From a virus (taxonomy: Duplodnaviria > Caudoviricetes): a stretch of 56,483 nucleotides of DNA. The notes under the pieces are model-generated. The model was not told the origin of the DNA, made no database searches, and saw only the letters and a list, made by a program, of their open reading frames with translations. A program made the translations under genes and the position numbers. The stretch's first letter is position 1. The number at the start of each line of letters is the position of its first letter. Location of the stretch: IMG/VR virus record IMGVR_UViG_3300024520_000087, positions 1 through 56,483 of that record. The stretch is one strand, 5' to 3'. Shown piece after piece: positions 6,147 through 11,214 of the stretch.

Positions 6147-7214
6147 ATGAAAATCAATCTTAAAGCATTCAACGAATTAGTAAACAAAAACTTCATTGGT
6201 GTACAAAAACACCCCGATTCAGACCTTCTTATTTGGAACTACACTAATAAAGCCCAATACGATGGTGAGTGGTTGCCAGAAACAAGAATGGCTCGTGGAT
6301 TAATCACTGACTTAGATGGGAATATCCTTTATCGTTCTTTTGATAAATTCTTTAACTATGCGGAACACACAGGTGAAGATAGTAAATTAGAACCAATCCC
6401 CAATGAAGAATTCAGTGTTTATGAGAAATATGACGGCAGTCTGGGTATTTTATATTGGATTGATGGAGAGACTTTTATTTCTACTCGTGGCTCTTTTGTT
6501 TCAGACCAGGCCAAGGTTGCCACCAAGATATTACGAGATAAATACCCCAATGTTCCCTTTCAAAACTTACATGAGTGGACAATCCTTTTCGAAATAATCT
6601 ATCCAGAAAACAGAATAGTGGTTGATTACGGTGAAATGAAAGATCTGGTCTTACTAAATGCAATTAATACAGAAACTGGAGAGAGTATTAATTATAAGGA
6701 GCTGACTAAATTTGCGAAAGAAAACAATATTCCCATAGCGGAAAGATATCAATTTACATCTCTTCCAGACATGAATACTGACATTCCAATTAACGTAGAG
6801 GGTTACGTGATTGAATTTGAAGGTGGGATGAAAGTAAAAATGAAATATGACGAGTATGTGCGATTACACCGTTTGGTAACTGGCGTAAACTCAAAAACAA
6901 TTTGGGATCTTCTACGACACAAACAACCGTTTGATGAGTTGTTAGACAAAGTGCCAGATGAATTCTACGATTGGGTTAAGAAAACCAAACTCAATCTGGA
7001 GAACTCTTACAAGGAGATAGAAGACTCTGCAAAAAAGAAGTTTAAAGAGATATCTGACTTAAAAACCAGAAAAGAACAGGCATTTTCTTTATCGGGTTAC
7101 ACTTATCCTGGAATTGTCTTTAAAATGCTGGATGGCAAGGATTACGAAGAACAAATATGGAAAATTATCAAACCCAGAGCGGAAAAACCATTCAAGGAGG
7201 ACGTAGATGCCTAA
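6147..7214 (+). CDS. T4 Rnl1/RnlA-family RNA ligase
   Basis: ARGLI, FDKFFN, motif I EKYDGSLG, STRGSF, FEII.PENRIVVDY, EGYV, KMKY..Y. Confidence 0.92.
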   Translation: MKINLKAFNELVNKNFIGVQKHPDSDLLIWNYTNKAQYDGEWLPETRMARGLITDLDGNILYRSFDKFFNYAEHTGEDSKLEPIPNEEFSVYEKYDGSLGILYWIDGETFISTRGSFVSDQAKVATKILRDKYPNVPFQNLHEWTILFEIIYPENRIVVDYGEMKDLVLLNAINTETGESINYKELTKFAKENNIPIAERYQFTSLPDMNTDIPINVEGYVIEFEGGMKVKMKYDEYVRLHRLVTGVNSKTIWDLLRHKQPFDELLDKVPDEFYDWVKKTKLNLENSYKEIEDSAKKKFKEISDLKTRKEQAFSLSGYTYPGIVFKMLDGKDYEEQIWKIIKPRAEKPFKEDVDA

Positions 7215-8052
7215 AATAATACTAACCAAAGGATTGCCTGCAAGTGGAAAAACTACTTGGGTAAAGGAAGAACAAAAGAAAGATCCCAACCTTGTTCGTG
7301 TTAACAAAGATGATCTTCGTGCCATGTTGCATGGTGGTAAGTGGGGCAAGAATAACGAGAAGGATGTTCTTGCGATCAGAAATTTTATTGTAGATAGGGC
7401 ATTGACTCGTGGACGAAACATCGTTGTCGATGACACCAACCTTCATTCCAAACACGAGATACACTTGAAGCAAGTTGCAAAAAAGCACAACGCAGAATTT
7501 ACAATTAAAGACTTTACGAGTGTTTCACAAGAGGAATGTATAAAACGTGATCTTAAAAGAAGCAATAGTGTTGGTTCCGAAGTAATCCATAAAATGTATA
7601 AACAATTCCTCGACATTGTCTCTCCAGGTATCTTAGAGCCAGATCCAAACTTACCGACTGTGATTATTTGTGATCTTGATGGAACACTTTGTTTGTTCGA
7701 CGGAAATCCTTACGAAAGAGACTTCAGTAAGGATAAGATAAATAAACCCGTGAAATCTATCCTAGACAGCAATGAAGACGTGAAAGACATAATTTTCTTT
7801 TCTGGTAGAAATGGTAAATTCAAAGACCAAACAAGAAAGTGGCTGGACGATCACGGATACGGTGACTGTTCACTGTATATGAGAGCTGAAGGCGACACCC
7901 GCAAGGACGTGCTAGTCAAGAAAGAGATGTATGAAGAACATATTGAGGGCAAATTTAATGTACTATTTGTGTTGGACGACAGAGATCAGGTCGTAAACCT
8001 GTGGAGGGGCCTTGGCCTGGCTTGTTTCCAAGTGGCAGAAGGGAATTTTTAA
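7207..8052 (+). CDS. pseT: Polynucleotide 5'-kinase/3'-phosphatase (T4 PNK-like)
   Basis: Walker A GLPASGKT, NKDDLR, VDDTN, R..KR lid. HAD domain DLDGT, SGR, DDRDQVV..WR..G. Confidence 0.93.
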   Translation: MPKIILTKGLPASGKTTWVKEEQKKDPNLVRVNKDDLRAMLHGGKWGKNNEKDVLAIRNFIVDRALTRGRNIVVDDTNLHSKHEIHLKQVAKKHNAEFTIKDFTSVSQEECIKRDLKRSNSVGSEVIHKMYKQFLDIVSPGILEPDPNLPTVIICDLDGTLCLFDGNPYERDFSKDKINKPVKSILDSNEDVKDIIFFSGRNGKFKDQTRKWLDDHGYGDCSLYMRAEGDTRKDVLVKKEMYEEHIEGKFNVLFVLDDRDQVVNLWRGLGLACFQVAEGNF

Positions 8053-8247: not shown

Positions 8248-8276
8248 TTGACAAATGTAACTATATTTTATATATT
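8248..8276 (+). promoter_or_regulatory. Sigma70-type promoter for the RAMP/array operon; leaderless start
   Basis: TTGACA-N17-TATATT, ATG 7 nt later at 8284. TGTAACYAYA boxes at 8230 and 8256. Confidence 0.8.
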
Positions 8277-8283
8277 ACCTCTA

Positions 8284-8475
8284 ATGAAAGTAATAAGCAT
8301 GCGCGACTTTACTACTAACCCCTACCATCATTTGGAGGAACTTCCCCTCGTCGTGATGAAAAGAAACGTCCCCCATCTTTACATACAGGACTTCTCAGAA
8401 GTGGCGACTAAGACCCTTGCAAAGAAAGTTATTAAAATGCACATAGAAAACATTGTGAAAAAGAAGAATAAATAA
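8284..8475 (+). CDS. Phd/YefM-like small DNA-binding protein
   Basis: MKVISMRDF...PLVVMKRNVPHLYI matches the Phd N-terminal pattern (ISxRDF...PVVITxxxxP). Confidence 0.65.
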   Translation: MKVISMRDFTTNPYHHLEELPLVVMKRNVPHLYIQDFSEVATKTLAKKVIKMHIENIVKKKNK

Positions 8476-8477
8476 TC

Positions 8478-9077
8478 ATGGCCAAAAACGTATCAGTACA
8501 TATCCCAGAACCAAATATACAGACAATTAAACTAACTCTTGTTGGTAGGCGACCTCTTATTATGAATGAGTGGAGTGAAAAGGCTAAAACTCAAATAAGA
8601 GACAAACAAGCCAAAAAAGCTAACAAGAAAAAGAATGCACGTAAACCAAAAGAAGAGTACGAGTCAGCCAAAATCAAAAATGGAAAAGGGAAACTTAGCA
8701 TTAAAGCTATCTGGATAAAGAGTGCAATTGTCGGATCTGCAAGATTTGTTGACGATCTTCCAATGACAGTATTAAGAGGCGCAGTCTTTGTAAGAGGTGA
8801 TGATGACGGATTAATACAACTCAGATACAAGAAAGAGGAAATGGTCGAGGACACAGTGAGACTTTCAGGGATGGGTAGAAGTGCAGATTTAAGATACAGG
8901 CCATATATCTACGACTGGGAAGCAGATGTCGAGATAGACTTTGATGGAGACGTTCTTTCTCTCGAACAAGTAGTTAATCTTGTTAAAAAAGCAGGATTCT
9001 CTAACGGTTTAGGAGAAAACAGACCAGAACGTAGTGGAAATGATTATGGAACATTCGACGTAAAAGCAACAAAGTAG
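8478..9077 (+). CDS. Stand-alone RAMP/Cas7-like protein (Vipr-like)
   Basis: RAMP-like layout: beta1 IKLTLVGRRPLIM, SIKAIWIKSAI (cf. IPGSSLKGAL), R.RP...W, and a C-terminal Gly-rich loop AGFSNGLGENRPERSGNDYGTFDV. No other cas genes are present. Confidence 0.72.
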   Translation: MAKNVSVHIPEPNIQTIKLTLVGRRPLIMNEWSEKAKTQIRDKQAKKANKKKNARKPKEEYESAKIKNGKGKLSIKAIWIKSAIVGSARFVDDLPMTVLRGAVFVRGDDDGLIQLRYKKEEMVEDTVRLSGMGRSADLRYRPYIYDWEADVEIDFDGDVLSLEQVVNLVKKAGFSNGLGENRPERSGNDYGTFDVKATK

Positions 9078-9313
9078 TGGCAGGATCGTTACGGTTTTTA
9101 TCGGAAAATTACGCAAGTTATCGGATGGGATGGGATTGGCAGGAGGGGTATCGAGTGTAGGGGATTGGACCAGAAAGGAGTCGAGGGTTAAGGATCGGAA
9201 TAGCAGGAACGGAAGAGAGGGGTATAGAGGGGTGAGGAACAGAAAGGAACGGATTGGCAGGAACGGAGGGGGAAGATTGGAGGGGAGAGTTTAGGAATGG
9301 AGAGGAATGGAAA
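9078..9313 (+). ncRNA. Pentameric (GGA-NN)n array, four units separated by GGCA/AGCA; candidate guide-RNA array
   Basis: T(G/A)GCAGGA at 9078, 9137, 9201 and 9255, spaced 59, 64 and 54 nt (all 5n+4). Between them is a 5-nt register with a mostly GGA/GGT/AGA triplet and a variable dinucleotide. Starts immediately after the RAMP stop codon. Confidence 0.8.
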
Positions 9314-9315
9314 TC

Positions 9316-9762
9316 ATGAAAACAAGAGACAAAATACAAAAAGCATTTAATGAGCTATCAGAAAAAAGCTCAGATGGAGGTGTGAGACCTGAAGACTTGG
9401 TTAAATACGCAAAACCCAAGGATTCACCACTGCATGAACACTTCGAATGGGACAATAAAAAGGCGGGTCAAACATATAGGGTTCACCAAGCAAGACAGTT
9501 GATTGGAAAACTACGAGTAGAAGTAGAAGGAGAAAACGTAAAACAGTTTCACAGTATTGTATTGGAAGTAGAAGAAGGTAAAGAAAGTAAATATTTCTCT
9601 CTAGAGAAAATACTTACAGATAAAGATCTCAAATCAAAAGCACTAAAACAGATGGTTAAGGATATTAAGTTCTTTATTAAAAAATATGAAACGCATAAAG
9701 AATTATTTGAAATAGTGAATACGGATAAAGTCGACGAATACCACAAACAGTATTTAGATTAA
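9316..9762 (+). CDS. Phage protein immediately downstream of the array (possible partner of the RAMP module)
   Basis: P..LV..A....SPLH.HFEWD...A...YR..QARQLI motif. Starts 2 nt after the last pentamer. Confidence 0.75.
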   Translation: MKTRDKIQKAFNELSEKSSDGGVRPEDLVKYAKPKDSPLHEHFEWDNKKAGQTYRVHQARQLIGKLRVEVEGENVKQFHSIVLEVEEGKESKYFSLEKILTDKDLKSKALKQMVKDIKFFIKKYETHKELFEIVNTDKVDEYHKQYLD

Positions 9763-10041: not shown

Positions 10042-11214
10042 ATGAAAACCAAGAATAAAAAATGCAAACAGTGCAAGATAACTTTTTCCAGAAAAGTTTG
10101 GAATCAGGTATTTTGTTCCAACAAATGTCAAAGAGAATGGCTTTTAAAGGTCAACTTAAAGATCAAGGAGAAGAAAAAGAAGCAAAAGGAAGAATACAAA
10201 TCTAAACACCCGCTTGTTGAAAGAAAAAAGGAATGTAAACAGTGTGGAGAGACTTTTACCTGGAGGTCTGATAAACCAACTAGAAAATTCTGTGAAGTAA
10301 AGTGTTCATCTAAATATGGTGGCCCAAAAGAAAAAGATAGGAGAAAAAAGATAAAAGAGTCTCAACAAAACATAGACAAAGATAACAAAAATCTAGTTGC
10401 AGTTAATGACGTGTGGCTCACACTCAAGCATTACAAAGAACCTCTCAAAAAAGTTAAAAAGGGTAATCATGGATTTTATGGTGCTCTTCTTTCTACTGTG
10501 GATGGGGAACTTATACAGTGTCATATTTGCGGGAAGCTTTATAAATCATTGATTTTCCACGTGAAGTCGGCTCACAAAATAAACACCAAGGAATATAGGA
10601 AAAAATTTAACCTTGCTGGCAGTACAGCTTTAGTTTCTGAGGTTCTTAGAAATAAATATAAAAAGAGAACGATTGATTGGCTAAATAAAATGAGTAAAGA
10701 AGAAAAGGAGACATATTTTGAAAGAAAACGGGAACGCATTAAAAAATGGTACGCGAGAACAAAAAAGGATGGCACCCTCCACGAAAAAATGTCTCACCCT
10801 ATTACTTTGGAAACTAAAAACAAAAGGGGTACGTGTCCAGACCAATTACTGGACAAAATAAAGAAAGTTTCCAATCAACTTGGCCACACTCCTTCTAAAA
10901 GAGAATTTATTCAAGTCTGTGAAACACAAAGGTATATGCATCTTATTTACAAGACATTTGGGTCTTGGCCCAATGCTCTTAAGATGGCTAAATTGAACCC
11001 AAAACCAAAAACAGAAAATGGAGGACACAGAAAATACTCAGACGAAGAGTTGTTGGAATATTTAAGAATCTTTACACAAGAGTTTAACAAGGTTCCTACA
11101 TATACAGATTTTAGAAGAGGTTTATTGCCAGACTACGCAATATATACGAGACGATGGGGAGGAATAGAAAATGCAAGACAAGAAGCAGGAATTTACGAAT
11201 TTATAGAAGATTAA
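10042..11214 (+). CDS. Multi-domain DNA-binding protein: Zn ribbons, MucR/Ros-like finger, homing-endonuclease-associated helical repeats
   Basis: Two CxxC...FCSxxC-type units, CHICGKLYKSL..HV...H.....EYRKKF, and two TPS...F...FGSW..AL-type repeats. No HNH catalytic motif seen. Confidence 0.7.
   Translation: MKTKNKKCKQCKITFSRKVWNQVFCSNKCQREWLLKVNLKIKEKKKKQKEEYKSKHPLVERKKECKQCGETFTWRSDKPTRKFCEVKCSSKYGGPKEKDRRKKIKESQQNIDKDNKNLVAVNDVWLTLKHYKEPLKKVKKGNHGFYGALLSTVDGELIQCHICGKLYKSLIFHVKSAHKINTKEYRKKFNLAGSTALVSEVLRNKYKKRTIDWLNKMSKEEKETYFERKRERIKKWYARTKKDGTLHEKMSHPITLETKNKRGTCPDQLLDKIKKVSNQLGHTPSKREFIQVCETQRYMHLIYKTFGSWPNALKMAKLNPKPKTENGGHRKYSDEELLEYLRIFTQEFNKVPTYTDFRRGLLPDYAIYTRRWGGIENARQEAGIYEFIED

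Follow-up and report, generated by a model that had tools for sequence, protein, structure and literature searches.

The complete 56,483-base IMG/VR virus record IMGVR_UViG_3300024520_000087, hereafter the window, is coded on one strand throughout and contains a Viral Interference Programmable Repeat (VIPR) locus, which consists of a pentamer array in a 236-base non-coding stretch (9078-9314, + strand) and the two genes that border it, P0001 (vipr) and P0002 (vap-like). In the second unit of this array, unit 2, the variable dinucleotides spell codon positions 1 and 2 of the P-loop of YchF, and this match is far beyond chance. We consider it probable (about 0.75) that unit 2 is a VIPR guide in a phage locus that specifies the P-loop of the host ychF gene, with silencing of that gene predicted during infection. 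YchF is a ribosome-associated ATPase that dampens stress responses. An initial annotation, made from the letters of the window, had proposed a guide to the 5' end of a conserved host gene, and overall that interpretation is supported.

According to the main text of the discovery preprint, VIPR systems pair a small ancestral RAMP protein, Vipr, with an accessory gene (vap), and their guide RNAs (vrRNAs) are built of 9-16 pentamers, each a GGY trinucleotide followed by a hypervariable dinucleotide NN (10.64898/2026.04.26.720920). The NN pairs read double-stranded DNA with one target base skipped per pair, hereafter the one-nucleotide (1-nt) skip rule; the skipped base falls mostly on the codon wobble position, and binding leads to a silencing of transcription like that of CRISPR interference, which was demonstrated for the type II system of Escherichia phage phiSUSP1, hereafter also SUSP1 (10.64898/2026.04.26.720920). 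In the structural work, each repeat is occupied by one protomer, which sequesters the trinucleotide and presents the NN bases (10.64898/2026.04.26.720927).

The variable pairs of unit 2 match the P-loop codons of ychF

Unit 2 (9142-9201, + strand) reads GGAgg GGTat CGAgt GTAgg GGAtt GGAcc AGAaa GGAgt CGAgg GTTaa GGAtc GGAat, exactly as first annotated, and its variable pairs are GG AT GT GG TT CC AA GT GG AA TC AT. As had been claimed, all of the first 11 pairs (11/11) coincide with the first two bases of the successive codons of GIVGLPNVGKS, and inclusion of the 12th pair brings the agreement to 23 of 24 bases; the accompanying chance estimate is reproduced by arithmetic, since 22 fixed bases give 5.7e-14 per position. 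The initial annotation had set the 12th pair aside as part of a semi-constant end. This does not hold: in 322 related units, the variability of the last pair almost equals that of the inner pairs (3.70 vs 3.95 bits). Probably the 12th pair belongs to the guide and carries one mismatch, AT where 116 of the 120 alleles listed have AC. The reading mode deduced at that stage, two bases read and the wobble base ignored, is the published 1-nt skip rule (10.64898/2026.04.26.720920, main text).

The gapped pattern GGNATNGTNGGNTTNCCNAANGTNGGNAANTC was scanned over the contigs of bacterial genomes in a 596-Gb collection, a search that the initial annotation had called for, and at least 120 stretches matched. 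Every match examined was ychF, in agreement with the proposed target class of a conserved bacterial gene, and the pairs fall in frame on codon positions 1-2 in 120 of the 120 matches listed. The encoded peptides among these are GIVGLPNVGKST (113), GIVGLPNVGKSS (3), GMVGLPNVGKST (2) and GIVGFPNVGKS[TS] (2); the peptide begins about five residues from the protein start in 87 of the 120, and the open frames have a median length of 365 amino acids (aa). All ten open reading frames (ORFs) tested from the listed matches belong to the YchF equivalog TIGR00092, with 453-588 bits vs a cut-off of 279, and each of the five genomes checked carries a single ychF site. Perfect sites occur in 166 of 603 sampled genomes (84/201, 27/201 and 55/201 in three phyla), vs 0/603 for the pattern written backwards. 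It had been suggested that the matches might also point to the host, which they do not: the perfect sites are spread over three phyla.

By arithmetic, chance alone would yield about 5e-7 sites per 4-Mb genome and about 0.07 in the 596-Gb collection. We also compared unit 2 with shuffled versions of itself on both strands of 1.77 Mb of bacterial DNA. In its true order and with a skip of one base, unit 2 reaches 23/24, while 600 dinucleotide or letter shuffles reach at most 20/24 and skip lengths of 0, 2 and 3 reach 17-18/24; since the pattern itself had served to select this DNA, the informative values are those of the controls alone. Shuffled units that matched equally well had been named as an outcome that would undo the reading, and none equalled the true order.

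The array has a five-base grammar and is linked to P0001 and P0002

The five-base period of the array is real: identity at lag 5 within 9078-9314 is 0.423 vs 0.314 +/- 0.029 in 5000 shuffles (z 3.8). Of the 44 pentamers, 34 have G at position 1, 29 have G at position 2 and 31 have A at position 3, so that positions 1-3 are mainly GGA and positions 4-5 are variable. The pentamers form units of 11, 12 and 10, which are delimited by the 4-nt words GGCA, GGCA, AGCA and GGCA. The last unit, unit 4 (9260-9314), slips by four bases after three pentamers and extends into the ribosome-binding region and the start codon of P0002; because of this overlap its 3' part may serve translation and not guiding. 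The array letters are identical across seawater metagenome runs of several studies (four DNA runs were compared where they cover the sequence).

The pattern of the unit junctions, GGANNGGANNRGCAGGANNGGW, occurs three times in the window vs 0 expected and is present in 111 stretches of the viral collection, 35 of which carry long arrays with the same grammar. Over 4199 pentamers of these related arrays, G occupies position 1 in 93% and position 2 in 79%; the third base is mainly A (63%) or C (25%), with T at 6% and G at 5%, and positions 4-5 are near-uniform. The separator is GGCA in 344 of 366 cases. Related units are mostly 8-13 pentamers long, with a mode of 9-10, and some arrays exceed 1 kb. 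Two of them (L109:2814-4092 and L067:11308-12797) have a GGC-rich scaffold, a span of 1.3-1.5 kb and about 20 units or more, and are thus far longer than the array in the window.

The stretches above were fetched by DNA pattern alone, and a P0001 homologue is encoded in 28 of the 35 that bear arrays and a P0002 homologue in 5 more. The genes lie on the same strand and adjoin the array in variable order. Neither homologue was found in the array-less stretches (0/76). In the reverse direction, a same-strand array lies within 2.5 kb in 56 of 80 viral loci fetched by P0001 homology, and a same-strand array was found in 46 of 80 metagenome loci, which are mostly short contigs. Relatives were found when an alignment of relatives served as the query; the P0001 sequence alone returned 0. 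P0002 homologues adjoin vipr and array in 29 of the 111 pattern-fetched loci and also stand beside vipr in five loci found via P0002 (L001-L005), where the two genes abut with no array between them. Because the association holds in both search directions, the array, P0001 and P0002 constitute a three-part module.

P0001 is a homologue of Vipr

The AlphaFold2 model of P0001 has a predicted local distance difference test score (pLDDT) of 90.7, and its top Foldseek matches in the PDB are all Csm3, Cmr4 or type VII Cas7 chains (E 1.4e-6 to 1e-4, probability 1.00, template modelling score ~0.5). P0001 has a C-terminal glycine-rich loop, GLGENRPERSGNDYGTF, and its family conserves the C-terminal motif G.G[ED]WRP...G..G.F. 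It matches phrog_4652; neither P0001 nor P0002 matches a Pfam family. The family profile A1 matches one single ORF in phiSUSP1 (KT454805.2) with E 1.2e-13 over profile positions 17-198 of 206, and an hhalign comparison of the family with the phiSUSP1 Vipr gives a probability of 97.9% (E 4.5e-13) over 56 columns in the part from the thumb to the G-loop. The matched ORF is accompanied by GGY/NN arrays, one upstream and three downstream, as in the published layout. Since the profile match leads to an ORF flanked by the published arrays, P0001 is a homologue of the validated Vipr.

At residues ~177-195 (9014-9062), P0001 reads GENRP where the family consensus and the SUSP1 Vipr read G[DE]WRP. In the SUSP1 Vipr, the G-loop Trp stacks on the second G of the repeat, whereas P0001 has Asn there. 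Homologues of P0001 with 29-39% identity, all annotated as hypothetical protein, are found in isolated phage records (e.g. NC_051648.1, 37415-37945) of 27 Mycobacterium phages, 7 Gordonia phages, Cyanophage Cy-LDV1 and Pseudomonas phage LESphi2. At the nucleotide level, 8478-9762 had no match in a blastn search against isolated phages.

P0002 is modelled with a pLDDT of 88.3 and matches phrog_15946. Its fold matches are weak to middling (forkhead, E 0.2-1; PadR/forkhead/LOTUS-type winged helices, Z 6-7), and in the model its N-terminal ~100 residues look like a winged helix.

The array at 9078-9314 together with P0001 and P0002 is a VIPR locus. P0001 is a small single-RRM RAMP of ~20 kDa with a glycine-rich loop and a thumb, the units are tandem pentamers with a fixed trinucleotide plus NN in about the published number of repeats (9-16), P0002 takes the place of the adjacent accessory (vap) gene, whose product in VIPR systems is often predicted to bind DNA, and a wobble-aligned 1-nt skip is seen for unit 2 on ychF and for a guide of a related locus on vipr, as described below. 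The trinucleotide is GGA (63%) or GGC (25%) and not the canonical GGY. Seven VIPR types are distinguished in the main text of the discovery preprint, and some use "a related consensus", including NNNGG repeats, and other array layouts (10.64898/2026.04.26.720920). Therefore, the absence of GGY argues against type II, not against VIPR. The conserved structured tail of about 40 nt per vrRNA that marks type II is likewise absent, the units being only 4 nt (RGCA) apart. Non-canonical pentamer scaffolds are also reported in the main text of another preprint (10.64898/2026.10.21.760802).

Guides and targets in related loci

The initial annotation had suggested that arrays beside homologues be decoded for further in-frame matches, and this gave a second guide-target pair. 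An 11-pair unit of one related locus (L145:3614-3668) matches the vipr gene of another (L128:2855-2887) at 22/22 bases, in frame on the codons of EDMVRVGMGTA and with the wobble base skipped. The Vipr of L145 itself reads EDMVRLNLATA at the targeted place. An 8-pair unit of a third locus, L127, matches the same motif at 16/16. Judged from the sequences, these guides are part of a VIPR-against-VIPR conflict within the clade. The L145-L128 pair thus lends independent support to the 1-nt skip rule in this Vipr clade.

When 632 distinct related units (8-20 pentamers) were compared with a database too small for statistics on the whole clade, the best match was at least 0.95 in 2 units with a skip of 1, in 0 with skips of 0 and 2, and in 4 with a skip of 3; the last four are attributed, in an unchecked assignment, to arrays left unmasked. 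The main text of the discovery preprint sets the threshold of a target match at 80% or more (10.64898/2026.04.26.720920). The exact 1-nt-skip patterns of unit 1 and of unit 3 each gave 0 stretches in the viral collection, in a search that covers exact matches and not those of at least 80%. With up to two mismatches, unit 3 was found in 1 of 101 genomes vs 3 of 101 for its control, in a sample of one phylum.

Proposed silencing of ychF and its alternatives

If the locus works like the solved SUSP1 system, each pentamer would be bound by one Vipr protomer that buries the constant trinucleotide (here GGA or GGC) and presents the two variable bases, and these would pair with double-stranded DNA at two of every three target bases. 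Given this pentamer reading mode, unit 2 would specify GG.AT.GT.GG.TT.CC.AA.GT.GG.AA.TC(.AT), and the predicted target is the coding strand of the ychF P-loop at about codons 5-16, G-I-V-G-L-P-N-V-G-K-S-(T), with the skipped base on the wobble position. The RNA of unit 2 is presumably expressed and processed at GGCA, and a Vipr filament on the promoter-proximal part of the host ychF would bind and repress the gene during infection. The host would carry a matching ychF allele and the phage would gain from the silencing. Synonymous changes in ychF, except to Leu CTN or Ser AGY codons, would not permit escape. Because the wobble base is skipped and the residues are unchangeable by the host, such a guide would be effective in many host lineages and leave almost no route of escape.

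Several observations weigh against a guide to the host gene. Among the 632 distinct related units, no other resembles the ychF code (the next best agrees at 8 of 12 bases, in a partial overlap), so that the target is not corroborated by relatives, and the closest Vipr relative compared is only 62% identical; nearer Vipr relatives (P0004-P0013) have 65-76% identity. Six of the 12 scaffold trinucleotides of unit 2 differ from GGA (GGT, CGA, GTA, AGA, CGA, GTT). Only 166 of the 603 sampled genomes contain a perfect ychF site. The large terminase subunit has at most 32% identity to that of any isolated phage; hence, we infer the matching allele of the marine host. No RNA run is listed for the stretch. 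As far as the main texts go, published natural targets are competing mobile elements and not host genes (10.64898/2026.04.26.720920; 10.64898/2026.10.15.759431). Finally, the position-3 pocket of SUSP1 excludes purines (10.64898/2026.04.26.720927, main text), while the consensus here has a purine, and perturbation of GGY abolished SUSP1 silencing, with GGY>GGA among the substitutions tested (10.64898/2026.04.26.720920, main text). The mechanism proposed here is therefore a transfer from a different VIPR type.

The alternative that survives best, although we regard it as unlikely, is that unit 2 is a real guide whose relevant target is a ychF 5' end on or abutting a competing mobile element, such as a prophage, a satellite or a phage-captured N-terminus. 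It agrees with the natural VIPR targets described in the main text of the discovery preprint, mostly competing satellites, prophages and other VIPR loci (10.64898/2026.04.26.720920), and five stretches of the viral collection (L318-L322) indeed carry the ychF site. In L320, a phage terminase gene lies about 2.5 kb from a full ychF; L318 and L321 have ychF-like ORFs, and L322 has a 185-aa ORF that shares with YchF its first ~30 residues, including the target site. The copy in L319, however, adjoins secA and a ZIP transporter and is thus a host flank. Moreover, these are only five stretches in the whole viral collection, as against at least 120 in bacterial genomes, and a host with the matching allele would be bound too, so that the host gene would not be spared. 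Regarding the ORF of L322 (1692-2249, - strand, on a small viral contig), it is only in the first ~30 residues that it corresponds to the YchF N-terminus, and it is flanked by MazG, PTPS (QueD-like) and NUDIX genes; this chimeric ORF may be a fragment that was captured, or else act as a decoy or as a target.

We give less credence still to the idea that unit 2 sends Vipr to ychF for no repressive purpose, as a parking or decoy site or as a chromosome anchor. Anchoring had been raised in the initial annotation, and decoy targeting of the host genome is described for satellites, whose solo vrRNAs divert VIPR to host repetitive extragenic palindromic (REP) elements (10.64898/2026.10.15.759431, main text). 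Those REP decoys are, however, multi-copy, at over a thousand loci according to that text, and ychF offers a single site per genome and would be a poor sink. The guide also sits in the VIPR locus of the phage itself and not in a rival element, and its exact, wobble-aligned match to an invariant coding motif fits gene targeting that is hard to escape.

That the YchF reading is a coincidence, with another target or none, seems very improbable. The motif was recognised post hoc, units 1 and 3 are without a target found, and no relative shares the guide; against this stand the expectation of about 5e-7 per genome, controls of at most 20/24, the 0/603 of the backwards pattern, and the in-frame, wobble-skipping position of the pairs in 120 of the 120 matches listed. 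The weakest alternative, which we regard as negligible and dropped because the arrays are linked to a RAMP gene, holds that the GGA-rich array is not a guide but a platform or sponge for proteins, for example a GGA/GAG repeat RNA of the CsrA or TRAP type or a sponge that resembles Shine-Dalgarno sequences, or else a pentanucleotide microsatellite in decay. In its favour, GGAG-like words abound in this purine-rich region and proteins that bind GGA or GAG repeats are known. Against it, that RAMP gene is homologous to the validated Vipr and tightly linked to the array, positions 1-3 are fixed and positions 4-5 near-uniform over the 4199 pentamers, the guide-target pairs are perfect and in frame, and no Rfam family matches.

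Organization of the locus and its neighborhood

The features of the locus are collected in Table 1. The promoter is likely the driver of the whole module, to judge from its consensus match alone; in total, the region has no more promoter-like sites than its shuffles. No terminator-like site was found between 8000 and 10100. An Rfam search at the gathering thresholds returned 0 matches and a tRNA scan found 0 tRNAs.

Table 1. Coordinates of the VIPR module in the window.
Feature	Coordinates	Strand	Remarks
Promoter, near-consensus sigma-70-like (TTGACA, 17 nt, TATATT)	8248..8276	+	Upstream of vipr; 11/12 hexamer positions match
vipr gene (P0001, 199 aa)	8478..9077	+	Cas7-like RAMP, single RRM
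GGCA punctuation preceding unit 1	9079..9082	+	From array parsing
Unit 1, 11 pentamers	9083..9137	+	Partly degenerate scaffold GGA GTT GGT TTA GGA ATT GCA TTA GGA GGA GGA
GGCA punctuation	9138..9141	+	Separates units 1 and 2
Unit 2, 12 pentamers	9142..9201	+	Variable pairs equal ychF P-loop codon positions 1-2
AGCA punctuation	9202..9205	+	Separates units 2 and 3
Unit 3, 10 pentamers	9206..9255	+	From array parsing
GGCA punctuation	9256..9259	+	Separates units 3 and 4
Unit 4	9260..9314	+	3 in-phase pentamers, then phase slip; end overlaps P0002 ribosome-binding region and start
vap-like accessory gene (P0002, 151 aa)	9307..9762	+	Alternative start 9316; neighbour of vipr and array

The neighbours of the module are an RNA ligase, a polynucleotide kinase/phosphatase, a protein with HNH-type repeats and proteins without known identity. 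The first two form a tRNA-repair pair directly upstream of the VIPR module (6147-8052), in which the RNA ligase is T4 Rnl1-like. A 75-aa ORF with a TTG start (8248-8475) begins at the -35 hexamer of the promoter; it matches no family and is therefore perhaps not a gene. Immediately downstream of the module, 10042-11214 encodes a 390-aa protein that combines homing-endonuclease-associated repeats with a ROS/MucR domain.

Implications

VIPR, a relative of CRISPR, was described only in 2026. In the main texts, natural guides are aimed at rival phages, satellites, prophages and other VIPR loci, and those of satellite decoys at host REP repeats. A ychF, GTPase or housekeeping target is not mentioned in the main texts of the VIPR preprints, whose supplements might list the array type or such targets. 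Unit 2 belongs to the phage's VIPR locus, and what it matches is a universal, single-copy host gene, at the codons under the strongest constraint. Such a match points to programmable silencing of host genes during infection as a second use of VIPR. If this is true, unit 2 would be, judged by those main texts, the first case of a natural VIPR guide directed at a protein-coding gene of the host. The broader idea, that a marine phage guide on the invariant P-loop codons of ychF reflects VIPR used for host takeover by silencing of housekeeping genes and not only for warfare between elements, we hold at even odds.

The ychF site also provides a natural test of the wobble-skipping logic on a target that is unable to mutate away, and it is a defined, single-copy, cross-species target for bench tests. 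In addition, a Vipr clade with a purine at scaffold position 3 and tail-less, GGCA-punctuated arrays bears on the differences in the pocket and in RNA processing between VIPR types.

Comparison with known systems

The closest predicted fold to P0001 is that of the class 1 CRISPR backbone (Cas7/Csm3/Cmr4), and in both systems protomers are strung along a guide RNA whose pairing is interrupted periodically. The two differ in that VIPR has no repeat-spacer array, uses one RAMP gene and carries hard-wired, not acquired, guides; the period of the VIPR RNA is 5 nt with two paired bases, vs 6 nt with five paired bases in class 1 CRISPR. Tandem Repeats Finder detected no long-period direct repeats in the window of the kind a type III CRISPR-Cas array would show, and no cas gene besides P0001 was seen among the neighbours scanned, in a survey that did not include a dedicated cas search of the whole window.

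The solo vrRNAs that satellites direct to REP elements resemble unit 2 in being natural vrRNAs that best match the host chromosome. According to the main text, however, these are encoded by the rival, address multi-copy non-coding repeats and act as decoys, whereas unit 2 belongs to the VIPR locus of the phage itself, and the coding motif that it matches is single-copy.

The nearest counterpart is the VIPR of phiSUSP1. Both are phage-encoded, with a single small RAMP, an adjacent accessory gene and same-strand arrays of about 9-13 pentamers that combine a fixed trinucleotide with a hypervariable dinucleotide. In both, the targets fit the wobble-aligned 1-nt skip and there is no self-target; for unit 2, 0 sites with up to three mismatches were found in the 56,483-base phage record. 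They differ in the scaffold (GGA in 63% or GGC in 25% of pentamers in this clade, GGY in phiSUSP1), in the layout (contiguous, tail-less units with GGCA here, a conserved ~40-nt tail on each phiSUSP1 vrRNA) and in the accessory protein, since no similarity between P0002 and the SUSP1 vap was detected. The matched target also differs, being a host housekeeping gene here and competing mobile elements among the published natural targets of VIPR. In summary, the locus is a VIPR system with a variant scaffold and array layout, and its notable point is the host-gene target.

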